A stretch of DNA of 24,000 nt from an uncultured Eubacteriales bacterium (GTDB taxonomy: Bacteria > Bacillota > Clostridia > Oscillospirales > Oscillospiraceae), in the NCBI GenBank assembly GCA_900079765.1, contig LT599017.1, forward strand, positions 3,152,996 to 3,176,995. Direction: 5' to 3'. Below, piece by piece: positions 4,212 through 20,740 of this stretch. Within the stretch, counting starts at the first letter, position 1; each line of letters starts with the position of its first letter. Under the pieces are notes generated by a model. The model saw nothing but the letters and a program-made list of their open reading frames with translations, did not search any database and was not told the DNA's origin. The position numbers were made by a program, and so were the translations under genes.

Positions 4212-4214
4212 GAA

Positions 4215-4237
4215 CAAGGCGGGGCATCCCCGCCTTG
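4215..4237 (-). terminator. Stem-loop terminator after the nucleoside ABC operon
   Basis: CAAGGCGGGG-cat-CCCCGCCTTG is followed on the minus strand by TTCTTGCAAT. It lies 17 nt after the last permease stop. Confidence 0.6.
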
Positions 4238-4253
4238 TCCCTGTCATTTTCTC

Positions 4254-5204
4254 TTACCCCTGCTCAGCCTTTGCAATCTTACCGTGTTTCATGCGGTTTT
4301 TCTTCCTGCGTACGGAGGAGGAATATGCCGCCAGACCAATCAGCGTGGCAATATAGGGCAGTGCCTGCACCGCTTCCGCGGGGACGTTCAGTGTCTGGAG
4401 CACGTTGGAGAGCGCATTGGCGACGCCAAAGGCCAGAGCGGCCAGGAAAGTCGGCAGGGGCGCCGCGCCGCCCAGGTTCTGCGCTGCAATACCCATAAAG
4501 CCGCGGCCGGCCACCATGTCGCGGGCAAACCAGGAGAGGTAGCCCATGGACATATAGATACCGCCAAAGGAGGCAATCACACCACTGATGATTAGCGTAG
4601 TAAACTTGGTCTTTACCACGTTGATACCCACGCTGGCTGCGGCATTGGGGTTTTCGCCCACGGTACGGATACGAAGGCCAAGCGCGGTTTTGAATACCAG
4701 CAGCCACACCACAATCACGCATACGAAGCTGAGATAGGTCAGCACATTGTGTCCGGACAGAATCGTTCCCAGGATGGGAATGTCCTTAATGACGGGAATT
4801 TCAATATTGGGGAAAGTCAAGCTGGGAAGCGAGGTGGAGAGGCCCTTATCGTTAACGAGCACATAGAGCATGAACACTGTGCCGCCCGAAGCGAAGGTAT
4901 TTAGCGCAATGCCGGTCAGAACCACATTCGCGTTCAGTACCAGGTTGAAGTAGCCCAAGAGCAGCATGATTGAGACGCCGCCGGCAAGGCCGGCAAGCAG
5001 TCCCACGAAGAGATTCTGGGAATAGGCGCTGCCTACCACACCGCAGAAGGCGGCGGTGAGCATACAGCCTTCAAACGCGATATGGAGACACCCGCCGCGG
5101 TTGCAGACCAGAGCGGCCAGGGCTGCGAAGAGGAGCGGCGTGGTCACACGGATGACTGAAAACAGGAAGTCGGCGGAGAAAATTGCGGCAAACAGACTAC
5201 TCAT
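4254..5204 (-). CDS. BMP-family (nucleoside/simple sugar) ABC transporter permease, NupQ/YufQ/RnsD-like
   Basis: The 316 aa ORF is a polytopic membrane protein. It overlaps the upstream permease by 4 nt (ATGA). Its position and composition fit the second permease of a BMP-type ABC operon. Confidence 0.85.
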   Translation of the reverse strand: MSSLFAAIFSADFLFSVIRVTTPLLFAALAALVCNRGGCLHIAFEGCMLTAAFCGVVGSAYSQNLFVGLLAGLAGGVSIMLLLGYFNLVLNANVVLTGIALNTFASGGTVFMLYVLVNDKGLSTSLPSLTFPNIEIPVIKDIPILGTILSGHNVLTYLSFVCVIVVWLLVFKTALGLRIRTVGENPNAAASVGINVVKTKFTTLIISGVIASFGGIYMSMGYLSWFARDMVAGRGFMGIAAQNLGGAAPLPTFLAALAFGVANALSNVLQTLNVPAEAVQALPYIATLIGLAAYSSSVRRKKNRMKHGKIAKAEQG

Positions 5205-6307
5205 GCGGCAACCTCCCCTTTCGCGGCAAGCTGTTTCTCAGCGGCTTCCACCAGTTTCTTATGCTTGAGTCTGTGGAGGAAACGCTCTGCTACCACCAGC
5301 ATGATAATGATCGCCTGGATAATGTTGACCAGTTCGATGGGGATATCGTTGGTGCGAGCCATCACGTCGGCACCCACGCGGACGTACGCGAGGAACAGGG
5401 CGGCCAAGGGCACCAGCTTGGGGTTGTAGCCCGCGATGATGCCCACCAGGATGCCATCGAAACCGTGGTTGGTCAGGCCCTGATACTGGAAACGCTTATA
5501 CATGCCCAGCACTTCCACCGCGCCGCCGATGCCGGCGATGGCGCCGCCCAGAAGCTGGGCGTTCATCAGGATACGCTTGACCGGCATGCCGGAGTAGGTT
5601 GCAAAGTCCATGTTCTTGCCCACGATGCGGATCTCATAGCCGCGCTTGCTGCGGTAGAGATAGAAGTAGCCCAGTATCACCACGACGATACCAATCACGA
5701 TGCCGGCATGGACGCTGGTGCCCTCCAGCAGGCGGGGCAGCTTTGCGTTATCTGCAAATTTATAGGAGGCGAGATAGCCCGCCGCCGGATCGCGGAGAAT
5801 ATGGTTAATGATGCCGAGGCCAAAATAGAGGCACACATAGTTAACCATCAGACTGCTGACCACGGGCTTGGAGTCAAATTTCACGTAGAGCGTGGCAGGG
5901 ATACCGCAGGCGATGGCGCCGAAAATACCGCCGGCCAGAAGGCAAACAACGATATGGATGACAGGGGGCAGGTTGAGCACGTTGGCTATGATGGTGGCAC
6001 CCACAGCACCCACGAAAAAACCGCCCTCGACTGCCATATTGGTCTGGTTCGCTGAGAAAATAAGGCAGACTGCTACGCCGGTGAAGAGCAGAGGTGTCAT
6101 CATCTCCACGATGTTGCCCATACGGCGCATGGTAGAGATGGGGCCCAGGATAAAGCTGTGCAGCGCGCTCAGCGGGTCGTCTGTGATAACCAAAATGATG
6201 GCAAAAGCGATACCCAGAGCGATGGCAACGGCCAGCAGCATGCGCAGGATATTGAACTCTTTTTCAATTTCCTTGGGAGATTTGAGCTTCTTATCGTTCT
6301 TAGTCAT
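5201..6307 (-). CDS. BMP-family ABC transporter permease, NupP/YufP/RnsC-like
   Basis: The 368 aa ORF is a polytopic membrane protein. It overlaps the ATPase gene by 8 nt. Confidence 0.85.
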   Translation of the reverse strand: MTKNDKKLKSPKEIEKEFNILRMLLAVAIALGIAFAIILVITDDPLSALHSFILGPISTMRRMGNIVEMMTPLLFTGVAVCLIFSANQTNMAVEGGFFVGAVGATIIANVLNLPPVIHIVVCLLAGGIFGAIACGIPATLYVKFDSKPVVSSLMVNYVCLYFGLGIINHILRDPAAGYLASYKFADNAKLPRLLEGTSVHAGIVIGIVVVILGYFYLYRSKRGYEIRIVGKNMDFATYSGMPVKRILMNAQLLGGAIAGIGGAVEVLGMYKRFQYQGLTNHGFDGILVGIIAGYNPKLVPLAALFLAYVRVGADVMARTNDIPIELVNIIQAIIIMLVVAERFLHRLKHKKLVEAAEKQLAAKGEVAA

Positions 6308-7865
6308 CGTACGCCACGCTCCTAATCTCTTCCGGCGTCATTTTCTTAATGCCAAGCATGTACTCGCCCAGCTCGTCCTCAGACACCGATTGAGCGTCTT
6401 TGAACCACGCCGCAATCTGGCCGTCGCTCATGACCAGAAGGCTGTCGCTCACCTCCATGACCTCGTTGAGGTCGGCGCTGATCAGGAGTACTCCCGCACC
6501 CTTATCCCGAAGCTCCACGAGCTTTTTCCGGATAAAGTCGGATGCGCCGATATCAATGCCGCGGGTAGGCTGATTGGCAATGATCAACATGGAGTCCGAG
6601 GTAAATTCCCGGGCGGCGACCACCTTTTGCATGTTTCCGCCGGACAGCATGCGGATGGGCTGGTCCTTGCCATCGCACTTAACGTTAAAGGCCTCAATCA
6701 GCTCATCGGCCAGATTATCCACCTTTTTCCGGTCCATCAGAATGCCCTTCTGGAATCCGGGCTTATAGTACCGGTCAGAGACTATATTTTCCGAAATTGC
6801 GCCGTCACCCACAATGCCGTAGGTCATTCTGTCCTCGGAGATGTGGGCCACGCCCGCCTCCCGGATCTGGCGGATGCTGTGCTTGCGCACGTCGATAGCC
6901 GTGGTGCCGACTGTCACGTCTCCTTCAAAGCTCTTGTCCATGCCGGTGACGATTTCACTGAGCTCCTTCTGTCCGTTACCCTCAACACCTGCGATTCCGA
7001 TGATCTCACCGCGGCGGACGCGGAAGCTCACGCCGTCCAGCACCTTCTTCGCGCCGCTGGTACCCATCTTGGACACGCAGCGCACATCCAGCACGGTCTC
7101 ACCAGGTTTCGGCTTTTCCTTGTCGATCTTCAGCACCACGTCGCGGCCAACCATCATGCGGGAAATGTCCTGCTCTGTGACATTTTTAATCTCTTCCACG
7201 CCAATGGTGCGTCCGGCACGCATAACGGTGACCCGGTCGCACAGGTCGGTGACCTCCTGCAGTTTGTGGGAGATAAAGATAACGGTATAGCCCTCTTTCT
7301 TTAGGTCCTTAAGCTCCACAAAAAGCTCCTTGGTCTCCTGCGGTGTGAGCACGGCGGTGGGCTCGTCCAAAATTAGAATACGCGCGCCGCGTACCAGGGC
7401 TTTGAGTATCTCTACCTTCTGCTTCTGTCCGACCGACAGGTCCTCGATCTTTGCCAGCGGTTCCACTAAAAAGTTATACTTTTTGGCGGCCTCGGCGGTA
7501 ATTCGGACTGCCTCGTCCATATCAAAAAGTCCGTTCTTTTTTGGCTCCATGCCAATGACCAGATTTTCCGCAACAGTGAGAGAGGGTACGAGCATAAAGT
7601 GCTGGTACACCATACCGATTCCATACTGAATCGCTACGGTTGGGTTTTCGATGTGGACCTCCTCGCCTTTCAGCAGGATGCGTCCTCCCTCAGGCTTTTC
7701 CACGCCGAACAAAACCTTCATTAGGGTACTCTTGCCCGCGCCATTTTCTCCAACAAGCGCGTGGATCTCGCCTTCATTTACATGGAGGTTCACGTCCTTG
7801 TTCGCTACAAAGCCGTTTGAGTAGACCTTGGTTATATTCTCCATCGCCAGGATATTTGCCATCAT
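6300..7865 (-). CDS. BMP-family ABC transporter ATP-binding protein with duplicated ATPase domains (NupO/YufO/RnsB-like)
   Basis: Domain 1 has Walker A GENGAGKST, signature LSVGQKQKVEILKAL and Walker B ILILDEPT. Domain 2 has the degenerate GVEGNGQ, LSGGNMQKV and LIIANQPTRGID. The start is reassigned to MMANILAMENI at 7865, with GGAGG 9 nt upstream; the ORF-track start at 7946 lies inside the intercistronic hairpin. Confidence 0.9.
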   Translation of the reverse strand: MMANILAMENITKVYSNGFVANKDVNLHVNEGEIHALVGENGAGKSTLMKVLFGVEKPEGGRILLKGEEVHIENPTVAIQYGIGMVYQHFMLVPSLTVAENLVIGMEPKKNGLFDMDEAVRITAEAAKKYNFLVEPLAKIEDLSVGQKQKVEILKALVRGARILILDEPTAVLTPQETKELFVELKDLKKEGYTVIFISHKLQEVTDLCDRVTVMRAGRTIGVEEIKNVTEQDISRMMVGRDVVLKIDKEKPKPGETVLDVRCVSKMGTSGAKKVLDGVSFRVRRGEIIGIAGVEGNGQKELSEIVTGMDKSFEGDVTVGTTAIDVRKHSIRQIREAGVAHISEDRMTYGIVGDGAISENIVSDRYYKPGFQKGILMDRKKVDNLADELIEAFNVKCDGKDQPIRMLSGGNMQKVVAAREFTSDSMLIIANQPTRGIDIGASDFIRKKLVELRDKGAGVLLISADLNEVMEVSDSLLVMSDGQIAAWFKDAQSVSEDELGEYMLGIKKMTPEEIRSVAYDD

Positions 7866-7903
7866 AAACGATCGCCTCCATGTTTCTCTGCCCATTTTCC
7901 AAT

Positions 7904-7937
7904 CGCCCTGCGGCAGTTCTAAAACTGCCACAGGGCG
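7904..7937 (-). promoter_or_regulatory. Intercistronic 15-bp stem-loop between the BMP binding-protein and ATPase genes
   Basis: CGCCCTGcGGCAGTT-ctaa-AACTGCCaCAGGGCG, with one mismatch. There is no U-tract on the minus strand. Confidence 0.55.
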
Positions 7938-7950
7938 ACGGGCCATTCTT

Positions 7951-9126
7951 TTAGGGGCGCACGGAATCGCGGATGCCGTTGAGCGTGTCGTTGTCCATGC
8001 CGACGGCGGTCTGAACTTTGATCTCGCCGTTGGCGACCTTCTCCTGCAGCTCCTTCAGCTGGTTGATCTGGTCCTCGCTGAACACGGCGCGGAAGTATTT
8101 GTTATCGGCGGCGCCGACGGACCCCTTGGCAAGACCGGCAGTCTCATAGGCGCCCCAGGGCAGAGTGCCCTCCACGGCGGCCTTCAGAGCGTTGTAGACG
8201 GTATTGTCGATCATCTTCATCATGGAGGTGACAATGTGCTCGCTGAGGATGGGGTCGCTGTCCTCCAAAACGGTGGCCTGGTCGGCATCAACGCCAATGG
8301 CGTAGACGTTCTTCTCCTTGCAGCCCTCCAGCGCGCCTAGTCCGGCGCCGCCTGCAACGGCGAACACAATGTCGGCGCCCTGGTTAATCTGGGCAATGGC
8401 CATCTCTTTGGCCTTGGCGGTATCCTTAAAGTCGCCGATGTAGGAAATCAGGACCTTGATCTCGGGGTCAACAGCCTGAGCGCCCTGAATGTAGCCGACG
8501 AGGAAGTCGTTGATGGCGGTGTTCTCGCCGCCAGCCACGAAACCGATAACCTTGTCGGGGTTGGCGAGAGGTGCGTCGGAGGTTGTCAGCATGGCGGCGG
8601 CGGCGCCCACGACAAAGGAACCCTCGTTCTGCAAATGCTCCATACTATAGATGTTGGGCAGCTCCATATCGTCCTTGGCATCATAGAGAATAAACTTCTT
8701 GTCGGGGAACTCCTCGGCTACCGTCTGCATGGACTCGAGGATGTTGTAGGTGCCGCCGATGATGATGTCCCAATCATCGCTCTCAGCGAACTCGGTCATG
8801 GTGGGGATCTGCTTGGTAGCGTCACCGTTGAGCTCGACGACCTTGGTGCGGAAACCAAACTCCTCGGCCGCGCGCATAAGGCCTGCGTTGGACAGATCGC
8901 AGAAGGACTTGTCACCCAGGTTGGTATTCACAATCATGACCACGCCCACATCGGCGGGGTCCTTGCCGAGACCGGAGGGCTCGCCGCTGGGAGTGGTGCT
9001 GGTGGGGGCGGGAGTTCCGCTGGTGCCGGGAGTGGGGGTGTTGCCCCCTGCAGCGGGGCTGCCGCAGCCGGAGAGAAGGCCGAGGGTCAGCGCGAGAGCA
9101 AGTGCAAGAGAGGTAAGCTTTTTCAT
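7951..9126 (-). CDS. BMP-family (PnrA/Med/TmpC-like) nucleoside-binding ABC transporter lipoprotein
   Basis: The signal peptide plus lipobox is LLSGCGS, followed by a Thr/Pro/Gly linker. The fold is BMP-like (GVVMIVNTNLGDKSFCD...GTYN...VIGFVAGGEN...GVDADQ). The start may be 9126 (MKKLTS, better RBS spacing) or 9132 (MEMKK). Confidence 0.85.
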   Translation of the reverse strand: MKKLTSLALALALTLGLLSGCGSPAAGGNTPTPGTSGTPAPTSTTPSGEPSGLGKDPADVGVVMIVNTNLGDKSFCDLSNAGLMRAAEEFGFRTKVVELNGDATKQIPTMTEFAESDDWDIIIGGTYNILESMQTVAEEFPDKKFILYDAKDDMELPNIYSMEHLQNEGSFVVGAAAAMLTTSDAPLANPDKVIGFVAGGENTAINDFLVGYIQGAQAVDPEIKVLISYIGDFKDTAKAKEMAIAQINQGADIVFAVAGGAGLGALEGCKEKNVYAIGVDADQATVLEDSDPILSEHIVTSMMKMIDNTVYNALKAAVEGTLPWGAYETAGLAKGSVGAADNKYFRAVFSEDQINQLKELQEKVANGEIKVQTAVGMDNDTLNGIRDSVRP

Positions 9127-9205
9127 TTCCATGTTCCTCCTTCGTTTTGTTGCGCTTCATTTTTTTATTTTCAATCCCGCTTCGGCAGGGAATGAACGAG
9201 GGAAA

Positions 9206-9889
9206 TTATGCGGTGGCGGCACGGTGCCGGTTCAGCAGCGGCGTAAAGAAATGGATGGACCACTGGAGGACGGGGCCCGTGAGCAGCATGGCTATGACCG
9301 TTCCGATTCCCCAGGTTGCGGAGAGGAGAATACCTCCTACCACTAGGATGATATCCTGAATGACCTTTGCCTTGGTATAGGAAAACTTCTTTTTAGCACA
9401 CAGGAGCTTGACCAGCCCTTCCAGCGCCCCGAATCCCCGGTCTACCGCAACGTAAAGTCCCAGGCCGCAGCCCATTAGAATGGTGCCAGCCACTGTGCAG
9501 AGCACCCGTGTAACAATGGGCCACTCACAAATCAGAAGACCGCTCAGCATTGGCGTAAAAAGATTTACCCAAAGCCCGATCGTAAAAACGCATAGGACCG
9601 TTCCGATGTTGATGTAATTGCGTGCCAAAAAGAAAAGCACTACCAGCAGCACCATATTGGCCACCGTGTTGGCCGTTCCGTAAGAGATGTTGAACACATT
9701 ATGGATTCCGTCACAAAAAGTTGCCATGGGGCTGCTTCCCAATTCAGCGGCATAAAAAAGTGCCGTCCCAAAGGAAGAAATCATCAAACCAAAAGATATG
9801 ATAATTATGTCGCGTATAACAGAAATGATATTATCTTTCTTAAAATTCAAAATGAATCCGCCGGTCTCTTTTTTTCCCTTTTTCGGCAT
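9206..9889 (-). CDS. YczE/YyaS/YitT-like integral membrane protein
   Basis: The pattern SFGLMISSFGTALFYAAELGSSPMATFCDGI....SYGTANTVANMVLLVV, with about 6 TM segments, fits the YczE/YitT family. The start is reassigned to the ATG at 9889 (MPKKGKKE), with a GGAGGA RBS at 9894-9899. Confidence 0.6.
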   Translation of the reverse strand: MPKKGKKETGGFILNFKKDNIISVIRDIIIISFGLMISSFGTALFYAAELGSSPMATFCDGIHNVFNISYGTANTVANMVLLVVLFFLARNYINIGTVLCVFTIGLWVNLFTPMLSGLLICEWPIVTRVLCTVAGTILMGCGLGLYVAVDRGFGALEGLVKLLCAKKKFSYTKAKVIQDIILVVGGILLSATWGIGTVIAMLLTGPVLQWSIHFFTPLLNRHRAATA

Positions 9890-9917
9890 AATGTCCTCCG
9901 TTTCCCGTCCGTCGTTC

Positions 9918-9947
9918 ATTATAATCGACACTATATCCAACCGTCAA
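9918..9947 (-). promoter_or_regulatory. Promoter for the YczE-like gene (and probably the BMP ABC operon)
   Basis: On the minus strand: TTGACG (9947-9942), an 18-nt spacer, then TATAAT (9923-9918). Confidence 0.55.
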
Positions 9948-10051: not shown

Positions 10052-10110
10052 ACCAGCAAGAGGCGCACAACCGGCGCGGTCTACAATGAAAAAGCAGGGA
10101 GCGGATCAGT

Positions 10111-10881
10111 ATGGAAAAGGAACTCATGCATCATATTAAGTGTGGCAAGGGCGATGTGGGGCGTTACGTCATCCTCCCGGGCGACCCTGGCCGGGTCGAG
10201 AAAATTGCCGCTTTTCTGGATAACGCGAAACATGTGACCACCTACCGCGAGTACAACACCTGGACAGGCACTCTGGAAGGCGTGCCCGTCAGCGTCTGCT
10301 CCACCGGCATCGGCGGCCCCAGCGCCTCCATCGCCATGGAAGAGCTTATCAAGTGCGGCGCCGACACCTTTATCCGCGTAGGCACCTGCGGCGGGGTGGA
10401 CGCTTCTTTGATCCCCGGCGATCTTCTCATTCCTACCGGCGCGATCCGCAAGGAGGGTACCGGCCTTGAGTATGTGCCCGTCCAGTACCCCGCCGTGCCC
10501 AACTACGAGGTTCTCACCGCTCTCGACGGAGCGGCCGCCAAGCTGGGTTATCGCCACCATATGGGCGTGGTGGAGTGCAAGGACAGCTACTATGGCCAAC
10601 ACGACCCCGACAGTATGCCTGCCGGCGATGAGCTGAAAAGCAAGTGGAAGGCCTGGAAGATGGCCGGCGCGCTGGGCAGCGAGATGGAGAGCGCTACTCT
10701 GTTTCTCGTGGCCGGCGTCCGTCGGGTGCGTATGGGCACAGTTCTCCTTCTCTGCCGCAACCGCGAGCGCGAGGCCGTTACTGGACTTACCGAAACCGTA
10801 TGGGACACCGCATCGGCCATTGAGACTGCCATTGAGGCGCTCCGTTCCATCATCCGCAAGGATAAGGAAACCGGAAAGTAA
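10111..10881 (+). CDS. udp: Uridine phosphorylase (PNP/UDP-1 family)
   Basis: The 256 aa ORF is collinear with E. coli Udp as I recall it: ILPGDPGRVEKIAAFLD / VPGDPDRVEKIAALMD, VCSTGIGGPSASIAMEELIKCG..TFIRVGTCGG / VCSTGIGGPSTSIAVEELAQLG..TFLRIGTTGA, and EMESATL. It is clearly closer to Udp than to DeoD. Confidence 0.85.
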   Translation: MEKELMHHIKCGKGDVGRYVILPGDPGRVEKIAAFLDNAKHVTTYREYNTWTGTLEGVPVSVCSTGIGGPSASIAMEELIKCGADTFIRVGTCGGVDASLIPGDLLIPTGAIRKEGTGLEYVPVQYPAVPNYEVLTALDGAAAKLGYRHHMGVVECKDSYYGQHDPDSMPAGDELKSKWKAWKMAGALGSEMESATLFLVAGVRRVRMGTVLLLCRNREREAVTGLTETVWDTASAIETAIEALRSIIRKDKETGK

Positions 10882-10894
10882 TGGATTGAATTTG

Positions 10895-10933
10895 AAAAAG
10901 GAGACCGCGCCAACTGGCGCGGCCTCCTTTTTT
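10895..10933. terminator. Bidirectional intrinsic terminator shared by convergent udp and yjjW
   Basis: AAAAAGGAGaCCGCGCC-aact-GGCGCGGcCTCCTTTTTT. The stem is 13 bp with one mismatch, with an A-run on the left and a T-run on the right. Confidence 0.85.
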
Positions 10934-10939
10934 GTTGCC

Positions 10940-11782
10940 CTATATGAGTCGTGCTCTTTTAAACCCCAGCCCGCGCGCCTCCCGGAGGAGCTCCTCCATC
11001 CATACCCTGTGGGGCTGCGGCATGTCGGAGAGCTCCCCCCGCACGCCAAAGGGGCGGAAGGAAATCAGCTTGAGCGGCGTCTCCGCCGTCTCTTCCGGGC
11101 CGAGGGTCTGGGCTACTCCCTCCAGAACGGCCTTCACGTCTGCCCGCCCCGGTACGCAGACGTGGCGAACCTCCGTGAGCTTGCCCGCCTTCGCCAGGAA
11201 CGCGAGGTTCCGCTTCACCGGGCCATTCTCCTCCCCTGTCAGTTGGCGGTGAATCCCGGTGTCCCATGCCTTCACATCCAGCATGACACCGTCGCACACG
11301 GCAATAAGCTCCGGGAATGCGGATAACTCCACCATACCGTTGGAATCCATCAGGCAGGAAAGTCCTGCCGCCTTTGATAGGCGAAACAGCTCTGTCAGGA
11401 AATCCGGATATAGGGAGCACTCCCCGCCGGAGACGGTAATACCTCGGATAAAGGGGAGGTTCTTCTCTATCTGCACAAAAACCTCTTCCGCCGAGCTCCA
11501 TTTCACCTTGGGGGATGCGCGGTTCGGACAGGCGGCGATGCAGGCGTCACAGCCCACGCATTTCTCCTCGTTCCACACCACTCTTCCCTCTGCAGACTGG
11601 GACAGCGCTCCGCCGGGACAGACCGCAAGGCAGACGCCGCAGCTGTTGCACAGGTTCTGTGTCTCCGGGTTATGGCAGTAGGCGCAGCGGAGGTTACAGC
11701 CCTGCAGAAAAACAGCGGTCCGATTTCCCGGCCCATCCACCACACTGCTGGGGATAATTTTATTGACCGGAGCCCGGCTCAT
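10940..11782 (-). CDS. yjjW: Glycyl-radical enzyme activating protein, YjjW-type (radical SAM with two extra ferredoxin-like 4Fe-4S motifs)
   Basis: The N-terminus is SSVVDGPGNRTAVFLQGCNLRCAYCHNPE (CX3CX2C). It is followed by CNSCGVCLAVCP and CVGCDACIAACP, then ITVSGGEC. The start codon overlaps the stop of the upstream GRE gene (TAATG at 11780-11784). Confidence 0.85.
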   Translation of the reverse strand: MSRAPVNKIIPSSVVDGPGNRTAVFLQGCNLRCAYCHNPETQNLCNSCGVCLAVCPGGALSQSAEGRVVWNEEKCVGCDACIAACPNRASPKVKWSSAEEVFVQIEKNLPFIRGITVSGGECSLYPDFLTELFRLSKAAGLSCLMDSNGMVELSAFPELIAVCDGVMLDVKAWDTGIHRQLTGEENGPVKRNLAFLAKAGKLTEVRHVCVPGRADVKAVLEGVAQTLGPEETAETPLKLISFRPFGVRGELSDMPQPHRVWMEELLREARGLGFKRARLI

Positions 11783-13281
11783 TAGACGGACCGGACCTTT
11801 CTGTCCTTCAGGCGGTTGAGGCGGTAGTTGGCGCTGCCGTTGATGACGTTGTCCTGCAGAACAACCTCCCCCCGCTCGTACCGCTCCAAATCGCTGCGTT
11901 TGACAAGATATCCGGTGACGCGCACCAAATCACCCTGTGCGCCATAGAAGGCGCAGTACTTATCGCCAAGGCTGAACGCGCCCTTCACCAGGTCCAGCAG
12001 CGCGGCCGGATTGCGCTCTGCCGTGGAGTCAAAGGGGAAAATGTCGCTGCAGCCCGTGGGGAAAAATTTATGGAATCGGGCGGAGTGGCGCAGATGGTTG
12101 TGGATGTTGGCGGGCTCGTCACCCACGGTAATGCGCACGCCGGAGGTAACACCCACGTCGTCGGAAAGGCCCGCCTGGGCATGAAGCAAGAAATGTCCGC
12201 CCGCAACTTCGGAATACTTGGCCGGATAGCTCGCGGCAAAGTCCGAGATAACGGTCAGGATACGTTCGGCCAGATCGTCCGCTTCAGCGCTGCTGCCGTA
12301 CCGCCCCCCCCTACCCGCAAGGAGAAGATTTACGCAGTCGCACAGCCCGGCCACGCCGAACATGCCCACGAAACGCTCTCGCTCCACAAGCCCTTCCTGC
12401 ACGAGAAAATCGGACTGGAAATAGCCGGAGTCCTCCACCAAGAATCGGATGCGCTCGTTCATATAGTCGCCCAGCGCTTTCAGTGCGTCGGGCAGCAGCT
12501 CCGTACAGAAATGCTCCGGGTCCTTAGCAAGCTTTGCCAGCCGCGGCAGTACCACCCGGTTCAGGGTGTACGCCCCGCCCCGGAGCGGGAGGATATTGTA
12601 GCAGGAGGAAATACCGTAATCGAAACTGTAGGTGTCCTTGTGTGCCCGGTGATTACAGATAGCCGGGTTGGCGCAGGACAGGGAGCACAAAAGCGCAGCC
12701 TCTGCAAAATCATCGGGAGTAAGCTCACTGTCGTACTTAAGCGTCAGGTTGGGAACCTGCAGCTGCAGCTCCTCGACCAGTTCCAGAATAAGCCGTCCCG
12801 CCCGGGTGGCCTCCGGGCCCAGGTTGGCGTGGCTGTAAGCGTTGGCGATCGTGCGGTCGCAGAACATGAGGAACCGTCTCAGCGCTGCCTTGGCCGTCTC
12901 GTCGTCCACCCCCTCCAGAAAAGGCTCGATCAGCTTATCGATGTTTCCGAGGTACACCGGTTTCGTGGTAATGGAGGGGACATGGCAGTAGAGGATTTCC
13001 AGCGCGTTCAGCACCCCCTCCAGGTCCTTGGGCGGGTCCAGCCGTAAAAATTTGCTGCCCTGCCGGACAAACTTTTCATAGTCGGGCATCACGTAGCGGG
13101 GGCGGTAGGGCGCTTGTCCCTCGTTTAAGTCGTCCAGCCCGCCGCTCTCCCGGTAGTATTGGTAGCGGGGCGGAACATTGAGCACGTCCAACGTGTTTTC
13201 CGCGGCCAGGCAGAGGGCGGTCAGTTTCTGACGGTAGTTCAGGTGGGTGGAAGTGACAATTTCATAGACATTCTGGCTCAT
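11782..13281 (-). CDS. yjjI: Short glycyl-radical enzyme, YjjI family (DUF3029-like); substrate unknown
   Basis: The 499 aa ORF has a C-terminal glycine-radical fingerprint, GDLVRVTGYLVKR. Gly457 is encoded by GGA at 11913-11911, 42 aa from the C-terminus. Translation is coupled to a GRE activase. The length of about 500 aa, versus 750-850 aa for canonical GREs, matches the YjjI family. The RBS is GGAGGA, 6 nt upstream. Confidence 0.75.
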   Translation of the reverse strand: MSQNVYEIVTSTHLNYRQKLTALCLAAENTLDVLNVPPRYQYYRESGGLDDLNEGQAPYRPRYVMPDYEKFVRQGSKFLRLDPPKDLEGVLNALEILYCHVPSITTKPVYLGNIDKLIEPFLEGVDDETAKAALRRFLMFCDRTIANAYSHANLGPEATRAGRLILELVEELQLQVPNLTLKYDSELTPDDFAEAALLCSLSCANPAICNHRAHKDTYSFDYGISSCYNILPLRGGAYTLNRVVLPRLAKLAKDPEHFCTELLPDALKALGDYMNERIRFLVEDSGYFQSDFLVQEGLVERERFVGMFGVAGLCDCVNLLLAGRGGRYGSSAEADDLAERILTVISDFAASYPAKYSEVAGGHFLLHAQAGLSDDVGVTSGVRITVGDEPANIHNHLRHSARFHKFFPTGCSDIFPFDSTAERNPAALLDLVKGAFSLGDKYCAFYGAQGDLVRVTGYLVKRSDLERYERGEVVLQDNVINGSANYRLNRLKDRKVRSV

Positions 13282-13302
13282 AGGAATTCCTCCTCTAAAT
13301 AA

Positions 13303-14010
13303 TTACGGCAGCACCTCCCTACACAGAAGGCGAAGCCCCTGATACTGCTTTTCATTGACTTTGATTGCCCGTCCCTGGCACGAAATCAGGTTTTCCTTTC
13401 GGAAACGGAGCAACGCACGCTGAACGGTCTTGATGCTGAGTCCTGTCTCGTCTGCCATCTGCTGGCGTGCCACATTGAGATGCAAAAGCCCACTTTCTCC
13501 GCTTTTCTCCCAGGCCCGGCACAGGTAGATGGACATGCGCTCGACTCCGCTGAGGAAGAGGTAGCTCCGCTCCGTCCCGGTCTGGTCCACCAGCTGGCGG
13601 ACCATCTGGCAGGTCCTGGAAAAGAGCGCGTCCACATCCCCGCGCACCCATTCAAGGTACGTGCTGCGCGGTAAGGATGCCAAAACGCAGTCCCCCGCGC
13701 ACACCAGCGTCCCGCGGTAGACCGGGCAGTCGGAGAACACCTCGTATTCGCCAAAAATGGCTGGAGCCGTAAAATGTGCAAAGGCATAAACGCTGCCGCT
13801 CTCCATCTCATCCACGCCGCTTACCCGCCCCGCAAGCAGGAGATAGATGTATGTCGCCTCCTCCTGCGCGCGCAGGAGGACCTCACCCTCGCTCATGTGA
13901 AAGACCCGTCCTCCGGTTTCCATTTCCTGCCGCAGACTGCGCAGCAAGATCCGAAAGTACTCCCCCGCATAGCCTTCCAGTCCTTCCACATAGGCCTTGA
14001 TAGCACCCAT
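13303..14010 (-). CDS. Crp/Fnr-family transcriptional regulator (cNMP-binding-like domain plus C-terminal HTH)
   Basis: The 235 aa ORF has a beta-roll-like N-terminal region (VLLRAQEEATYIYLLLAGRVSGVDE...FGEYEVF). The C-terminal HTH is RQQMADETGLSIKTVQRALLRFRKENLI. There is no N-terminal Fnr-type Cys cluster. Its stop is 21 nt before the yjjI start, with no terminator between them. Confidence 0.8.
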   Translation of the reverse strand: MGAIKAYVEGLEGYAGEYFRILLRSLRQEMETGGRVFHMSEGEVLLRAQEEATYIYLLLAGRVSGVDEMESGSVYAFAHFTAPAIFGEYEVFSDCPVYRGTLVCAGDCVLASLPRSTYLEWVRGDVDALFSRTCQMVRQLVDQTGTERSYLFLSGVERMSIYLCRAWEKSGESGLLHLNVARQQMADETGLSIKTVQRALLRFRKENLISCQGRAIKVNEKQYQGLRLLCREVLP

Positions 14011-14166
14011 CGTTCGCTCCTCCTTCGGTGCTTACGCACCAATTCTATGCCCTTATCTTATCAACTAAAAGGACACATGTCCAGTTGCCGGTGAACTCTT
14101 TATTTTGCGCGGCTCCAAAGCACGTTTCTCCGCATGAGAAACCTCCCCTGAGCTGAAGCTAAATAC

Positions 14167-14204
14167 GGCCGCTGAGGCTCTGGGGTTCCAGAGCTCCAGC
14201 GGCC
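14167..14204 (-). terminator. Stem-loop after the DUF2207 gene (weak U-tract)
   Basis: GGCCGCTGagGCTCTGG-ggtt-CCAGAGCtcCAGCGGCC forms a 17-bp stem with a 2-nt internal mismatch. It lies 37 nt after the stop at 14241. The trailing sequence on the minus strand is GTATTTAGCTT. Confidence 0.5.
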
Positions 14205-16530: not shown

Positions 16531-17721
16531 ATGAAGAAACTTCTTGCAATGGCTCTTACCTGTACGATGCTGACAGCCATACTGGCGGGCTGCTCCAACA
16601 CCCCAAGCGGCGGCAACAACGGTTCCTCTGGCGGCGACGTGGTTAAAATCGGCGTATTCGAGCCCGCCACCGGCGACTCCGGCCCCGGCGGCAAGCAGGA
16701 GATGCTCGGCATGCAGTACGCAAATAAGGAGACGCCCACCGTGGACATCGGCGGCAAAACCTACAAGGTCGAACTGGTCTATGCCGACAATGGCTCCTCA
16801 ACCGACAAGGCACCCACCGCGGCCGCTCAGCTGGTGAGTTCCGGAGTGTCTATCGTCCTGGGCTCTTACGGCTCCGGCGTGTCCATGGCCGGCGGCCCCA
16901 AGTTTGAAGAGGCAGGCCTCTGCGCCATCGGCGTCACCTGCACCAACCCCAACGTCACCGCAGGCAACGACTACTACTACCGCATCTGTTTCCTGGACCC
17001 CTTCCAGGGCACCATCCTCGCCAACTTTGCTGCTGAGAAGTTCAGCGCCAAGAAGGCCTATTGCCTGGGTGAGCTGGGCAACGAGTACGACCAGGGCCTA
17101 ATCACCTTCTTCGAGCAGGCCTTTACCGCCAACGGCGGCACCGTGATCAAGGACTCGTTCCCCACCAACAACTCCGACTTTACCTCTTACCTCAACAAGG
17201 CCAAGGCCGAGGGCGCCGACGTCATTTTCTGCCCTGTATCCATCGCCTATTCCACTCAGATCGTCAAGCAGGCCGCTTCCCTGGGCATCGAGGCCCCCAT
17301 CCTGGGCTCCGACACCCTGGACAGCAACATGGTCCTTGAGGCCGCTAAGGGCAGCAGCGTCAAGCTGTACGTTTCCACTTTTTATCAAGAGGGCGGCTCC
17401 CCTGAGTTTGATACCGGCATCAAGGAGTACATTAACGGCGACGCTACCGCCAAGACGAATAACGGCGGCAACGATACCATCTCCGCCGTTACCGCCATGG
17501 GCTATGATGCCTACTACACCGCGCTCGAGGCTCTGAAGGCCGCCGGCTCCACCGATCTGGCCGCCATCAAGAAGGCCCTCCCCGGTGTGACCTACGATGG
17601 AGTCTCCGGTGCCATCGCCTTTGACGAGCAGGGCGACGCCATCCGCGACACCGCTTATATCAAAACCGCCGACACCGCCAACGGCGTTTGGACCCTGGAA
17701 ACCGTGCAGAAGGCCGGCTAA
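16531..17721 (+). CDS. livJ: Branched-chain amino-acid ABC transporter substrate-binding lipoprotein (LivJ/LivK-like, type-1 PBP)
   Basis: The 396 aa ORF has the lipobox LAGCS and a Gly/Ser linker. The fold is Leu/Ile/Val-binding-protein-like (VKIGVFEPATGD...VELVYADNGSS..KA...A.QL...GVSIVLGSYGSG). The RBS is GAAGGAGGA. Confidence 0.85.
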   Translation: MKKLLAMALTCTMLTAILAGCSNTPSGGNNGSSGGDVVKIGVFEPATGDSGPGGKQEMLGMQYANKETPTVDIGGKTYKVELVYADNGSSTDKAPTAAAQLVSSGVSIVLGSYGSGVSMAGGPKFEEAGLCAIGVTCTNPNVTAGNDYYYRICFLDPFQGTILANFAAEKFSAKKAYCLGELGNEYDQGLITFFEQAFTANGGTVIKDSFPTNNSDFTSYLNKAKAEGADVIFCPVSIAYSTQIVKQAASLGIEAPILGSDTLDSNMVLEAAKGSSVKLYVSTFYQEGGSPEFDTGIKEYINGDATAKTNNGGNDTISAVTAMGYDAYYTALEALKAAGSTDLAAIKKALPGVTYDGVSGAIAFDEQGDAIRDTAYIKTADTANGVWTLETVQKAG

Positions 17722-17746
17722 TAGGGCGTTACTTCATGTAATTTTT

Positions 17747-17778
17747 CGCATGGCGGAGGCCCGTGCCTCCGCCATGCG
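17747..17778 (+). promoter_or_regulatory. Perfect 14-bp intercistronic stem-loop after the livJ-like gene
   Basis: CGCATGGCGGAGGC-ccgt-GCCTCCGCCATGCG is followed by GCACGTTTATTGG. It lies in the 109-nt gap before livH. Confidence 0.6.
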
Positions 17779-17830
17779 GCACGTTTATTGGCGCTGAATC
17801 ATTCCACGCAACCGCAAGGGAGGAAACCCC

Positions 17831-18706
17831 ATGGAATATATCATATCCATCCTGCTCTCCGGTATTTCGGTGGGCGGGCAGTACGCCCTCATTGCCATCG
17901 GCTACACCATGGTCTACGGCATCCTGCGCCTCATCAACTTCGCCCATGGCGACGTGTTCATGGTGGCCGGCCTCATGATGGTGTACCTCTCGGCTACGCT
18001 GCCACTGCCGCTGGCCGTGCTGCTGGTACTCATTCTCACAGTGATCCTGGGCTTTGCCATTGAGCGGGCAGCCTATAAGCCCCTGCGTACCGCGCCCAGA
18101 ATGAGCGTCATGATCTCCGCCATCGGCGTGAGCTATCTCCTGCAGAACACCGCGACTTACATTACCGGCGGCCTGCCTCAGATGTACCCCACCGTCCCGC
18201 TTCTCTCGGAAAACGTGAATATCTTCGGTTCGACCACCAAGTGGGTCACCGTGGTGACGCCCGTCCTGGTTCTTGGCCTGGTGATCGGCCTTACCCAGCT
18301 CATCAACCATACCAAGGTGGGCATGGCTATGCGGGCAGTGGCCAAGGACTTCGAGACCAGCCAGCTCATGGGCATCAAGATCAACTCCGTCATCTCCATG
18401 ACTTTTATCATCGGCTCGTTTCTGGCGGCGGTTGGTTCGGTACTCTATTTCACCAACTACTCCTCCATCGTGCCCCTTTCCGGCGCCATGCCCGGCCTTA
18501 AGGCTTTCGTGGCCGCCGTGTTCGGCGGCATCGGCTCCATTCCCGGCGCGGTCATCGGCGCGTTCCTCATCGGCATCTGCGAAAACATCATCAAGGGTAC
18601 GCCCTTTACCGTGTTCTCCGACGCCTTTACGTTCGCTTTACTCATCGTGATCCTGGTGGTGAAACCCACCGGACTTTTCGGTGAGAAAGCCACCGACAAG
18701 GTCTAA
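17831..18706 (+). CDS. livH: Branched-chain amino-acid ABC transporter permease LivH
   Basis: The 291 aa ORF begins with the N-terminus typical of LivH: LLSGISVGGQYALIAIGYTMVYGILRLINFAHGDVFMV. Confidence 0.9.
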   Translation: MEYIISILLSGISVGGQYALIAIGYTMVYGILRLINFAHGDVFMVAGLMMVYLSATLPLPLAVLLVLILTVILGFAIERAAYKPLRTAPRMSVMISAIGVSYLLQNTATYITGGLPQMYPTVPLLSENVNIFGSTTKWVTVVTPVLVLGLVIGLTQLINHTKVGMAMRAVAKDFETSQLMGIKINSVISMTFIIGSFLAAVGSVLYFTNYSSIVPLSGAMPGLKAFVAAVFGGIGSIPGAVIGAFLIGICENIIKGTPFTVFSDAFTFALLIVILVVKPTGLFGEKATDKV

Positions 18707-18719
18707 GGGGGTGCCATTC

Positions 18720-19895
18720 ATGAGCAAACAAAAAAAGAACACGAAGGGCGCCTTTATCGCCATGGTCTGCGCTGCCGCCGTGCTGGCGCTGGTCATCCTT
18801 TTGGAAAATACTCTGTCCCCCACCAGTATGCTCTTCACGGTACTTAAAAAGGGTGCGGTTTATACTCTGGTAGCCGTCTCCATGAACCTACTCAACGGTT
18901 TTACAGGGCTTTTCTCCCTGGGCCAGGCTGGCTTTATGCTGCTGGGCGCTTATACTTATGCGATCCTCACTGTCCCTACGGACGTGCGCGACTCGGTCTA
19001 CTACCTCTTTAACGGCTCGGTGGTGAAGTTCTCCCTCCAGGAGGCTTTCAGCGCCCTCTTTGGAACTTCCGGCATGGGCGGGGCAATTAGCCTGGTGCTG
19101 GGCGTGCTGCTGGCCCTGATTCTGGCGGGCCTGGTAGCGGCGTTCTTTGCCTGGCTCATCGGCCTCCCGGTGCTGCGGCTTAAAAGCGACTATCTCGCCA
19201 TCGCCACCTTGGGCTTTGCCGAGATCCTCCGCGCCATCTTCCAGTGGGATGCCCTGGGCAAAGTCACCAACGGAGCCAACATGATCAAGAGTTTCCCCAC
19301 ATTCTCGAGTTTCAACATTACGAATTCTGAAGGTGCAATCGTGCTGCGCCTATCCACCTTTGTCCCCTTCCTGGTGGTCATCGTGTGCATCGCCCTTGTT
19401 GTGCTGCTCATCAATTCCTCCTACGGCCGGGCCTTTAAGGCCATCCGCGAGGACGAGATCGCCGCCGAGGCCATGGGCATCAACCTTGCCAAGCACAAGA
19501 TGCTCTCCTTCTGCATCTCAGCATTCTTCGCCGGCGTGGGCGGCGCTCTCTTCGCGATGTATGCCACCAATGCTCAGGCCAAGGTGTTCACCTCGGCGAT
19601 GACCTATGAGATTCTTTTGATCGTGGTCATCGGCGGTATCGGCTCCATCAGCGGAAGCTGCATCGCCTCGTTCCTCTACATCGCCGCCTCCGAGTGGTGG
19701 CTGCGCGGCCTGGACGAGAACCCACTCCTCGGTTTCAATGCCCCAGCCATATTCCGGGTCGGCCTTCGTATGGTAGTCTTCTCGGTCATCATCATGATTG
19801 TGGTCCTCTTCTTCCGCCGCGGCATCATGGGGAATAAAGAGATACCCGACCTCTTCCGAAGGCGGAAGAAAGCGGCGAAGGAGGTGGCGAAATGA
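18720..19895 (+). CDS. livM: Branched-chain amino-acid ABC transporter permease LivM
   Basis: The core is LivM-like: NLLNGFTGLFSLGQAGFMLLGAYTYA...DYLAIATLGFAEILR...FRGIMG. The start is reassigned to the ATG at 18720 (MSKQKKN), with an AAGGGGG RBS; the ORF-track start at 18681 overlaps livH. Confidence 0.9.
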   Translation: MSKQKKNTKGAFIAMVCAAAVLALVILLENTLSPTSMLFTVLKKGAVYTLVAVSMNLLNGFTGLFSLGQAGFMLLGAYTYAILTVPTDVRDSVYYLFNGSVVKFSLQEAFSALFGTSGMGGAISLVLGVLLALILAGLVAAFFAWLIGLPVLRLKSDYLAIATLGFAEILRAIFQWDALGKVTNGANMIKSFPTFSSFNITNSEGAIVLRLSTFVPFLVVIVCIALVVLLINSSYGRAFKAIREDEIAAEAMGINLAKHKMLSFCISAFFAGVGGALFAMYATNAQAKVFTSAMTYEILLIVVIGGIGSISGSCIASFLYIAASEWWLRGLDENPLLGFNAPAIFRVGLRMVVFSVIIMIVVLFFRRGIMGNKEIPDLFRRRKKAAKEVAK

Positions 19896-20740
19896 GCCAG
19901 AATGTCCTTCGTGTGGAAGACGTTACTATGCAGTTCGGCGGTGTCGTGGCCGTGAACAACCTCTCTCTTGAGGTGAACCAAGGCGAGATTGTGGCCCTTA
20001 TCGGCCCTAACGGTGCGGGCAAGACCACGGCCTTCAACTGCATCACCGGCGTCTACGAGCCCACCAACGGTCAGGTTGCCTTTCTGGGCGAGCCCATCGT
20101 GGAAAACTATCCCCAGGGCAAAATGAGGGCGGCCTATCTGGGCGAGAACAGCGGGAAATACACCAGGCGCATCAGTCCCACACCCGACCAGATCACCCGG
20201 GCGGGTATCGCCCGCACCTTCCAGAATATCCGCCTTTTCTCCACTCTGACAGTATTTGAAAACGTACTAATTGCCAAGCACATGCGGGCCAAGCAGAACT
20301 TCATGTCCGCCACGTTCCGCCTCAACCGCAGGGAAGAGGAGCGGATGCGGGAGGAGACCACGGCTCTTTTAGCGGAGCAGAACCTTCTGCATCTCAAGGA
20401 CGAAGTGGCGGGGAGCCTCCCCTACGGCCTGCAGCGCCGGCTGGAAATCGCCCGCGCCCTGGCCACGGAGCCCAAGCTCCTCCTTCTGGACGAGCCGGCC
20501 GCGGGTATGAACCCCCAGGAGACCCAGGCCCTGGCGGACTTCATCGGCCAGATCCGGGAAAAGTATAGCTTGACCGTATTTATGATAGAGCACCACATGG
20601 ACCTTGTCATGCGCCTCTCCGACCGCATCTACGTCCTGGACTTCGGCAAGCTGATCGCCCGGGGCACGCCGGACGAGGTGCGCAGCGACCAGCGGGTCAT
20701 CGAAGCTTATTTGGGGGTGGCGGAAGATGCTGAAGATTGA
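19892..20740 (+). CDS. livG: Branched-chain amino-acid ABC transporter ATP-binding protein LivG
   Basis: Walker A is GPNGAGKTT, with FGGVVAVNNLSL, signature LPYGLQRRLEIARAL, Walker B LLLLDEPAAGMNP and C-terminal VIEAYLG. There is a 4-nt ATGA overlap with livM. Confidence 0.9.
   Translation: MSQNVLRVEDVTMQFGGVVAVNNLSLEVNQGEIVALIGPNGAGKTTAFNCITGVYEPTNGQVAFLGEPIVENYPQGKMRAAYLGENSGKYTRRISPTPDQITRAGIARTFQNIRLFSTLTVFENVLIAKHMRAKQNFMSATFRLNRREEERMREETTALLAEQNLLHLKDEVAGSLPYGLQRRLEIARALATEPKLLLLDEPAAGMNPQETQALADFIGQIREKYSLTVFMIEHHMDLVMRLSDRIYVLDFGKLIARGTPDEVRSDQRVIEAYLGVAEDAED

Follow-up and report, generated by a model that had tools for sequence, protein, structure and literature searches.

The YjjI/YjjW pair of Escherichia coli (b4380/b4379), a glycyl-radical enzyme (GRE) and its activase, gave its name to the families TIGR04040/TIGR04041 and PF11230 (formerly DUF3029), and YjjI is, to our knowledge, the only GRE of E. 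coli K-12 that still awaits assignment of a reaction. Published work on yjjI concerns its regulation: the gene is directly activated by FNR (PMC3688515), chromatin immunoprecipitation peaks of CRP lie in and beside it, at the yjjI/deoC intergenic region (PMC4287617), and in Yersinia intermedia it was induced 4.3-fold anaerobically (PMC3792023). Together, these data support an anaerobic role in enterobacteria. A literature search on YjjI, YjjW, DUF3029 and b4380/b4379 returned no reaction, nor did one on glycyl radicals and nucleosides, and a review of the GRE superfamily from June 2026 mentions neither YjjI nor nucleosides nor uracil (PMC13450708). The same review reports that YbiW and PflD, formerly orphan GREs of E. 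coli like YjjI, have been newly assigned as sugar-phosphate C-O lyases, which cleave the C-O bond of 1,5-anhydroglucitol-6-phosphate or 1,5-anhydromannitol-6-phosphate ahead of an aldolase (PMC13450708). Here we analyse a 24,000-nucleotide stretch of DNA from an uncultured Eubacteriales bacterium of the Oscillospiraceae (contig LT599017.1, positions 3,152,996 to 3,176,995; the whole stretch is called the window). Judged from its genes and signals, the window carries a Crp/Fnr-family regulator, a short, oxygen-sensitive radical enzyme of the YjjI type and the corresponding activating enzyme as one operon. The original prediction, made by a model from the letters of the window, had left the chemistry of this pair unassigned. 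Our literature search bears this out, but the genes around the pair narrow the choice and are a strong pointer to nucleoside/pentose catabolism.

The YjjI protein of the window matched the TIGR04040 model with 608.8 bits (cut-off, 498.3) over residues 3 to 497 of 499 and PF11230 with 644.5 bits, which marks it as a bona fide, full-length member of the family, and YjjW matched TIGR04041 with 366.1 bits (cut-off, 250.2) as well as the Pfam families Radical_SAM and Fer4. The pair had already been recognized as YjjI/YjjW in the original prediction. This is correct but not new in kind, because the family is a recognized one and a protein identical to the window YjjI is already public (from an uncultured Eubacteriales bacterium). 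E. coli YjjI is 41% identical to it, has Gly457, Cys227, Cys203 and about 100 other invariant positions in common with it, and is 17 residues longer owing to N- and C-terminal extensions. In both organisms the activase gene overlaps the enzyme gene and the neighbours are nucleoside catabolic. However, the E. coli pair has no dedicated regulator but is under global FNR control with CRP sites alongside, and its neighbours are deoCABD, whereas those in the window are udp, encoding uridine phosphorylase, and an uptake system of the Bmp/PnrA type of ATP-binding cassette (ABC) transporters, a family best known for nucleoside import. Both lie immediately downstream of the pair and had been passed over before.

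A pattern scan with one genome per species yielded at least 594 YjjI-encoding loci, and the best 80 were taken with 10-kb flanks; they come from Oscillospiraceae, Lachnospiraceae, Clostridium, Tissierellia, Peptoniphilaceae, Bacilli, Erysipelotrichia, Mollicutes, Bacteroidales, a Spirochaetaceae metagenome-assembled genome (MAG) and Leptotrichia. A six-frame census found at least one gene for nucleoside uptake or catabolism (Bmp-ABC, ECF, NupG or NupC transporters, uridine phosphorylase, cytidine deaminase, DeoB, DeoC or nucleoside hydrolases) within 10 kb of yjjI in 55 of the 80 loci; 34 loci had two or more different ones. Any one such gene would be expected in well under 1% of random 20-kb windows, so that a share of 69% lies far above expectation, as reasoned rather than computed. 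Bmp was found in 34/80 loci, phosphorylases of the Udp/DeoD type in 30/80, YczE in 19/80, GntR in 14/80, DeoB in 9/80 and DeoC in 7/80. In 36 of 73 loci the nucleoside genes even stood in the same uninterrupted co-directional chain as yjjI. The same picture emerged when 1265 proteins from neighbouring open reading frames (ORFs) in 75 loci were clustered blind to function and ranked by the number of loci: YjjW (65/75) was followed by an ABC permease (36/75), an ABC ATPase (33/75) and a regulator (32/75), all three shared with the window, and then by the Bmp binding protein (30/75), uridine phosphorylase (25/75), YczE (17/75), cytidine deaminase (15/75), DeoB (10/75), a GntR/FCD and a LacI-type regulator (9/75 each) and DeoC (7/75).

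The nucleoside genes are arranged in several independent ways. The order [regulator] YjjI YjjW [Cdd] Bmp-ABC [regulator] Udp [DeoC] Cdd is seen in Tissierellia, Hungatella/Lacrimispora, Clostridium, Erysipelothrix, Peptoniphilaceae and Epulonipiscium; Udp<>YczE Bmp-ABC (esterase) GntR [regulator] YjjI YjjW is found in Oscillospiraceae/Lachnospiraceae and is rearranged in the window; and LacI, ECF transporter, Udp, DeoB<>regulator YjjI YjjW occurs in Christensenellaceae, Caproiciproducens and other Bacillota. Neobacillus has regulator YjjI YjjW NupG, Texcoconibacillus and Leptotrichia have a nucleoside hydrolase plus a PfkB kinase, C. drakei has PfkB plus PsuG, and in Enterobacterales the order is deoCABD<>yjjI yjjW (plus NupC in Edwardsiella), with yjjI-yjjW divergent from deoCABD in both E. 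coli and Edwardsiella. Thus, transporters of four unrelated classes (Bmp-ABC, ECF, NupG and NupC) are found beside yjjI, as are enzymes of three routes that lead to pentose phosphate (Udp plus DeoB, nucleoside hydrolase plus PfkB kinase, and PsuG). Ribose-5-phosphate is the metabolite common to these three contexts.

The three genes of the window are tightly packed. The stop codon of the regulator gene is separated from the ATG of yjjI by 21 nt, which hold a GGAGGA ribosome-binding site, and stop and start of yjjI and yjjW overlap in the sequence TAATG. In a consensus scan of the window, nothing resembling a terminator hairpin was detected between the regulator gene and yjjI. A single strong hairpin, with a stem of 7 G-C pairs, a loop of 4 nt, a T-run on the plus strand and an A-run upstream, lies directly after yjjW (Table 1), and two weak matches inside yjjI are at chance level (8 found versus 9.4 expected). 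The spacing, the overlap and the missing terminator had all been described in the original prediction and were reproduced by script. The same layout is found elsewhere: yjjW adjoins yjjI in 74/80 loci, an overlap of 1 or 4 nt joins the two genes in most of 62 loci, the median gap between regulator gene and yjjI is 22 nt, and a regulator of the same family is encoded in 38/80 species loci, mostly directly upstream of yjjI, which bears out the predicted link between regulator and enzyme. These signals establish a predicted transcription unit regulator-yjjI-yjjW that runs from a promoter with a 14-bp palindrome in place of the -35 region to the hairpin behind yjjW.

The palindrome was found by enumeration in 28 upstream regions, 17 of which contained AGGAC-N4-GTCCT. 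In 1.44 Mb of loci, AGGACANNTGTCCT had 13 perfect matches (0 in shuffled sequence) and 19 matches with a single mismatch (2.4 expected). Nearly all of them lay 33 to 92 bp ahead of the regulator gene or, in operons that have the regulator gene in a later position, ahead of yjjI. Operator and regulator gene co-occurred (26/39 loci versus 2/42; Fisher P = 2.5e-9), and one of the two exceptions is a truncated contig. In the window, the palindrome reads TGGACATGTGTCCT and lies upstream of the regulator gene itself, as expected if the regulator controls its own synthesis, which had been proposed before. A -10 element, often the extended TGnTATAAT, followed the palindrome at a distance of 22 to 23 nt in 16 of 24 orthologous promoters, several of the remaining ones have an equally good alternative -10 at this spacing, and a -35 element was not recognizable in any of these 24 palindrome-anchored promoters. 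With this spacing, the operator is centred at -40.5 or -41.5, as in the Class II geometry of Crp/Fnr proteins, and the fixed distance favours activation, that is, positive autoregulation. Likewise, the Class II activators CRP and FNR of E. coli use a 5-N6-5 palindrome near -41.5 that replaces the -35 element, and both act at E. coli yjjI; the half-site in the window, however, is AGGAC(A) and not TGTGA or TTGAT. A promoter returned by a consensus scan (TGGACA-17-TAAGAT) was set aside, since its position is not conserved and the conserved -10 lies 22 to 23 nt after the palindrome.

Further copies of the operator link the regulator to nucleoside catabolism more widely, as far as their placement tells. 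Four Bacillota have two sites in the spacer between the divergent genes for DeoB and the regulator, and in one Ruminococcus the operator precedes the chain DeoB-regulator-YjjI-YjjW-Bmp-Udp. A metagenome scan for the exact 16-mer operator gave at least 120 stretches, most of which are chance matches without the promoter geometry; about 15 were informative, including contigs L174 and L176. On L176, the exact operator AAGGACATATGTCCTT (position 6932) lies between divergent genes for an inosine-uridine nucleoside hydrolase and a Crp-family regulator of 226 aa; across the 14-kb stretch, no YjjI was detected. This layout suggests that the regulator/operator pair also controls nucleoside genes without the radical enzyme.

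The regulator has the two-domain architecture of CRP and FNR, with matches to PF00027 (47.0 bits; cut-off, 27.5) and PF13545 (35.9 bits; cut-off, 27), and aligns with E. coli CRP over residues 44 to 218. Its matches to the FixK, CRP, Fnr and YeiL models were weak and all far below the cut-offs (CRP, 36.1 versus 266 bits; Fnr, 22.5 versus 228 bits). That the operon has its own regulator of the Crp/Fnr family had been stated in the original prediction and stands; what can be added is that this protein is not an FNR-like oxygen sensor and probably not a cyclic AMP (cAMP) sensor. In contrast to FNR, it has no N-terminal Cys cluster, and C108 is the single Cys conserved (94%) among 34 regulators of the cluster, which are only 22 to 36% identical to it. 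An oxygen sensor of the FNR type was rejected because cluster cysteines are not conserved among these 34 orthologues. For CRP, G71/E72 align with G87/E88, but the phosphate-binding pair R82/S83 is replaced by Y98/R99 and R99 is not conserved in the orthologues; cAMP binding was therefore judged unlikely. In the recognition helix, I193-K194-T195-V-Q-R198 (K, T and R conserved) stands against R180-E181-T-V-G-R185 of CRP, so that K194 takes the place of E181. An N-terminal match to the YeiL model (E = 7.7e-4) scored 19.1 bits, and since the cut-off of 180 bits is far above this score, the regulator is no YeiL orthologue. E. coli YeiL, the third Crp/Fnr paralogue, is encoded beside the nucleoside hydrolase gene rihB and the permease gene nupX, and so resembles the window regulator in being a member of the Crp/Fnr family that keeps company with nucleoside genes.

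The radical-glycine motif VRVTGY starts at residue 453 of YjjI, and Gly457, previously named as the radical site, aligns with the invariant Gly of E. coli YjjI and 50 other members. Two alignments were used, A1, which includes E. coli YjjI, and A2, with 52 sequences; G457, R454, T456 and Y458 were invariant or nearly so in both. Also invariant in both was Cys227 in the motif GISSCYN, which we propose as the thiyl-radical site on grounds of conservation. A second residue, C203 in the motif C203-x-N-P-A, is located 24 residues before C227 and is nearly invariant (≥90%) from E. coli to Firmicutes. Many Arg and His residues are invariant as well (among them R60, R62, R143, R160, R242, R383, H151, H367 and H396), which would suit a phosphorylated substrate. 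An AlphaFold2 model based on the 52-sequence alignment (mean predicted local distance difference test [pLDDT] score, 91.3; predicted template modeling score, 0.91) has the GRE barrel and places C227 (strands 222 to 226 and 229 to 232) and G457 (strands 452 to 455 and 458 to 461) at the tips of two beta-hairpins, which would correspond to the classic finger-loop pair of GREs.

A Foldseek search of the PDB with this model gave 87 matches at E ≤ 0.001, and all 50 listed are GREs or class III ribonucleotide reductases (RNRs). The top 21, which include Prevotella copri 8p2s_B (E = 1.2e-15), Streptococcus thermophilus 9dau_A (template modeling [TM] score, 0.77) and T4 1h7b, are all NrdD, at 12 to 15% identity, followed by HypD, PflD, propanediol and glycerol dehydratases and CutC; YjjI thus has the GRE/RNR barrel, nearest to NrdD. 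Sequence searches of the PDB with the single protein or the 52-sequence profile found no GRE, only chance matches (E about 1). NrdD also resembles YjjI in its motif RRVCGYLG (RVxGY in YjjI), its two finger loops carrying Cys and Gly have putative counterparts in YjjI, and the genomic context of YjjI is ribosyl related. However, YjjI is about 200 residues shorter, and its score of 18.3 bits against Pfam NRDD is below the gathering score of 26.2. No ATP-cone was found in YjjI by Pfam, and a Cys-rich Zn-ribbon is absent before Gly457, where C411 and C443 are the only cysteines; the second catalytic Cys of NrdD is probably missing, too. YjjI would use the radical apparatus of NrdD, yet it is no NrdD. 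The predicted activase is likewise distinct: besides the radical S-adenosylmethionine (SAM) cluster C29-x3-C33-x2-C36, it has two ferredoxin-type clusters (C45/48/51/55 and C75/78/81/85), as described before, which are missing in NrdG, and it scored 153 bits with TIGR02494 (PflC/CutD type) but 48 to 67 bits with NrdG models. These motifs and matches identify YjjW as a radical-SAM activase with two auxiliary clusters of the ferredoxin type.

We propose, with moderate confidence in the scheme as a whole, that the operon encodes a Gly457/Cys227 radical relay which carries out a redox-neutral elimination on a nucleoside-derived ribosyl or pentose-phosphate substrate under the control of a Crp-family activator. 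By analogy to the family, YjjW would reductively cleave SAM and install a radical on Gly457 of YjjI under anoxia; the radical would then pass to Cys227, at the tip of the putative finger loop opposite, and the thiyl radical would abstract a hydrogen from the substrate. Comparative genomics suggests that the Bmp-ABC system next to the operon brings in nucleosides, chiefly uridine and cytidine, which uridine phosphorylase then cleaves, and YjjI may then act on a ribosyl compound of this route, be it the nucleoside itself, ribose-1-phosphate or ribose-5-phosphate. The likeliest chemistry would be that of the first half-reaction of RNRs, with abstraction of a hydrogen next to a hydroxyl group, followed by elimination. 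Since YjjI lacks the elements that NrdD uses for reduction (Zn-ribbon, ATP-cone and apparently the second Cys), a redox-neutral elimination is favoured, for which YbiW/PflD provide the precedent of a GRE acting on sugar phosphates (PMC13450708). The step would thus be a dehydration or a C-O/C-N lyase reaction without net reduction, and the product might go to an aldolase such as DeoC. YbiW and PflD match the YjjI model in fold (8id0, TM 0.70; 8yjo, TM 0.65) but are PFL-like proteins of 760 to 810 aa in a sugar context without significant sequence similarity to YjjI. The regulator would bind AGGACA-N2-TGTCCT near -41, most likely as a Class II activator of its own operon and possibly of an esterase gene, and would answer a small-molecule effector, neither oxygen via an FNR-type cluster nor, probably, cAMP.

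Several points weigh against this proposal. Both the substrate and the reaction type of YjjI are inferred from such context and comparison. About 25 of the 80 loci have no nucleoside gene within 10 kb, including several Bacillota and all nine loci from Paludibacteraceae/Bacteroidales, which carry an OPT transporter, a class II aldolase and an acetyl-CoA hydrolase instead; among the 25 are short contigs and loci whose divergent Bmp proteins escaped tblastn. The deo linkage is absent in Proteus, so that the enterobacterial adjacency is not universal, and the species in the counts share ancestry, the enrichment resting on the rank order of the clusters and the independence of the arrangements. 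In the window, udp and the Bmp operon form transcription units of their own, and no operator was detected at either. Repression, too, could be exerted from a site at -41 in combination with an extended -10. Finally, the residue-level comparison with NrdD comes from an hhalign run of the YjjI profile against E. coli NrdD with a formal probability of just 3%, used only as a pointer: it pairs YGISSCYN...VVLPRLA with PMGC384RSF...LNLPRIA of NrdD and starts directly after NrdD C175, where YjjI has an invariant Tyr63.

The main alternative, which we consider unlikely, is that YjjI is a reductive 2-deoxygenase, a non-allosteric, RNR-like enzyme that converts a ribosyl compound to its 2-deoxy form with formate or a thiol, so that DeoB and DeoC might split the pentose to glyceraldehyde-3-phosphate and acetaldehyde or deoxyribose might be provided for salvage. 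The nearest folds are indeed all NrdD, a second nearly invariant Cys is present in C203, yjjI and deoC are transcribed divergently in E. coli and Edwardsiella, DeoB (9/80) and DeoC (7/80) are among the neighbours and DeoB shares the operator, and in one locus (L080) an aldehyde:ferredoxin oxidoreductase gene lies directly upstream. But DeoC adjoins yjjI in a minority of loci only, no gene for supply of a reductant (formate transporter or thioredoxin) recurs in the neighbourhoods, the Zn-ribbon is absent and, with the reservation made for the alignment, Tyr63 stands where C175 would be expected. A minimal class III RNR that supplies deoxynucleoside triphosphates would draw on the same fold similarity and on the subthreshold NRDD match. 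We regard it as very improbable: not only does that match stay below the gathering score and are ATP-cone, Zn-ribbon and a C175 equivalent lacking, but E. coli retains a separate nrdDG, the activase is of the PflC/CutD rather than the NrdG type, and the neighbouring genes serve catabolism and uptake instead of replication.

Somewhat less likely than 2-deoxygenation is a substrate that has nothing to do with nucleosides, with the adjacency caused by shared regulation by anaerobiosis or carbon status or by co-transfer in a mobile block. Around one-third of the loci lack nucleoside genes, Bacteroidales have different contexts (OPT transporter, fructose-bisphosphate aldolase, acetyl-CoA hydrolase), and the identity of 57 to 77% between YjjI proteins across phyla suggests horizontal spread. 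Against this, at least five gene arrangements and four nonhomologous transporter families converge on one pathway, 36 of 73 loci have nucleoside genes in a co-directional operon with yjjI, the operator is common to DeoB and the nucleoside hydrolase, and although the window is rearranged relative to its closest relative (L002, 76% identity), YjjI is still beside udp and Bmp. Less likely again is a reaction on the pyrimidine base, uracil or a reduced derivative, in an anaerobic ring degradation. Uracil is the product common to the Udp, nucleoside hydrolase and PsuG contexts, Udp and Cdd are the commonest catabolic neighbours and funnel cytidine and uridine to uracil, and a biclustering study found E. 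coli yjjI co-expressed with narG and guessed at a role in nitrogen metabolism (PMC3228777), which also weighs against our main proposal. This guess found no support in the gene neighbourhoods. No dihydropyrimidinase, ureidopropionase or other ring-opening gene recurs near yjjI; deoCABD of E. coli, with the purine phosphorylase DeoD, and the co-regulation of DeoB point to the sugar moiety. Moreover, we know of no GRE chemistry that fits an aromatic lactam without a hydroxyl group beside a leaving group.

More tentatively, and with slightly less than even confidence, we suggest that the operon represents three new things at once: an undescribed glycyl-radical reaction on a ribosyl substrate, a new anaerobic branch of nucleoside/pentose catabolism and a nucleoside-responsive Crp-family activator in Firmicutes. 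If so, a reaction such as a radical dehydration or C-O/C-N elimination at C2'/C3' would operate in a branch found widely among anaerobes of gut and sediment and also in E. coli. At least about 600 species-level genomes encode a member of the family. Were the ribosyl hypothesis true, it would add a radical step to anaerobic nucleoside metabolism, with relevance to nutrient turnover by gut microbes, and YjjI would be an evolutionary bridge between RNRs and catabolic GREs. What is gained is a short list of candidate substrates, a defined regulator-operator pair and an RNR-like barrel stripped of the elements for allostery and reduction. Our literature search turned up no earlier account of how broad the nucleoside association is, of a dedicated Crp-family regulator with this operator and Class II geometry, or of the structural separation of YjjI from NrdD.

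High conservation is a feature of YjjI. The window protein is 57 to 61% identical to those of Bacteroidales and Bacilli and 70% identical to that of the Spirochaetaceae MAG, whereas the adjacent regulators reach only the low values given above, which suggests strong constraint, horizontal spread or both. A tblastn search of phage genomes returned only bacterial contigs filed as phage records. A second copy of YjjI is encoded in one Oscillospiraceae MAG (L074), in the order regulator-YjjI-YjjW-YjjI, and Neobacillus (L015) has a second YjjW-like activase gene a few kilobases downstream. A 574-aa NCBI protein on a 2.9-kb contig (P0124) with YjjI and DeoC Pfam matches aligns with E. coli YjjI at 100% identity across 91% of its length; it is probably an artefact of assembly or gene calling and not a true fusion, because yjjI and deoC are divergent neighbours. 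The aldehyde:ferredoxin oxidoreductase gene upstream of yjjI belongs to a Clostridiales MAG (L080, 7423 to 9573), and genes for a class II fructose-bisphosphate-type aldolase lie near yjjI in 7 loci from at least three lineages (L044/L048/L052, L013 and L056/L067/L072). Either enzyme could process the product of YjjI, or the proximity could be coincidental.

Table 1. Features of the window by position
Feature	Position	Strand	Remarks
Operator-like site GGGACACCTGACCT	2523-2536	+	Candidate second regulon member
Extended -10 TGaTAAAAT	2556-2564	+	Candidate promoter of the esterase gene
EstA-type carboxylesterase	2599-3393	+	
Bmp/PnrA-type ABC uptake locus	3438-9940	-	Pfam matches
GntR/FCD regulator	3438-4163	-	
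Permease	4254-5204	-	
Permease	5201-6307	-	
Double ABC ATPase	6300-7946	-	
Bmp/PnrA substrate-binding lipoprotein	7951-9132	-	
YczE/YitT-like membrane protein	9206-9940	-	NCBIfam YczE match below cut-off
Near-consensus promoter TTGACG-18-TATAAT	9947-9918		
ORF antisense to udp	10081-11049	-	322 aa
udp, uridine phosphorylase	10111-10881	+	Convergent with yjjW; TIGR01718 equivalog, 290.6 bits (cut-off, 280.3)
Bidirectional intrinsic terminator	10905-10922		Common to yjjW (-) and convergent udp (+); predicted end of the three-gene unit
yjjW, YjjW-family radical-SAM activase	10940-11782	-	280 aa
Two ferredoxin-type 4-Cys clusters of YjjW	11528-11650	-	Residues 45-85
Radical-SAM cluster of YjjW	11675-11698	-	Residues 29-36
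yjjI, YjjI-family GRE	11782-13281	-	499 aa
Gly457 codon GGA of yjjI	11913-11911	-	Radical-glycine motif
ORF antisense to yjjI	12070-13047	+	325 aa
Cys227 codon of yjjI	12603-12601	-	Proposed thiyl-radical site
Crp/Fnr-family regulator	13303-14010	-	235 aa; cyclic nucleotide-binding-like sensor domain and Crp-type helix-turn-helix
Ribosome-binding site GAAGGAGGAG of regulator gene	14017-14026		
Likely -10 hexamer TAGAAT	14042-14047	-	22 nt downstream of palindrome; operator centre at about -40.5; predicted transcription start near 14035
Operator palindrome	14070-14083		Consensus AGGACA-N2-TGTCCT, AAGGA-N6-TCCTT geometry; putative site of the adjacent regulator
Inverted repeat GTTTCTC-ATGCG-GAGAAAC	14124-14142		Perfect, 7 bp
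Terminator of DUF2207 gene	14167-14204		
Branched-chain-amino-acid-type ABC transporter operon	16531-21422	+	Complete
PfkB-family kinase	22875-23762	-	219 bits (ribokinase cut-off, 299.65)

The esterase gene may belong to the same regulon. The operator-like site in front of it has 2 mismatches and would, taken alone, be at chance level for that reason, but its spacing of 22 nt to the extended -10, its position 69 bp upstream of the gene and a parallel in locus L009, where a perfect operator lies upstream of the esterase gene, make it a credible candidate. The protein matches PF00756 and PDB entry 4rgy (E = 6.5e-50), is of the EstA/tributyrin-esterase type and has orthologues (58 to 72% identity) in 12 other YjjI loci.

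The two antisense ORFs that overlap udp and yjjI have no family matches and are typical artefacts of high-GC DNA; in several related loci, automatic ORF picking gave the same artefact, which masked udp, the regulator gene or yjjI. The reading frame of the YczE/YitT-like protein contains the near-consensus promoter, so its actual start is probably the ATG at 9889 (MPKKGKK...). The complete branched-chain-amino-acid-type ABC transporter operon and the PfkB-family kinase gene showed no evidence of a link to the module. The perfect inverted repeat is located between the terminator of the DUF2207 gene and the operator.

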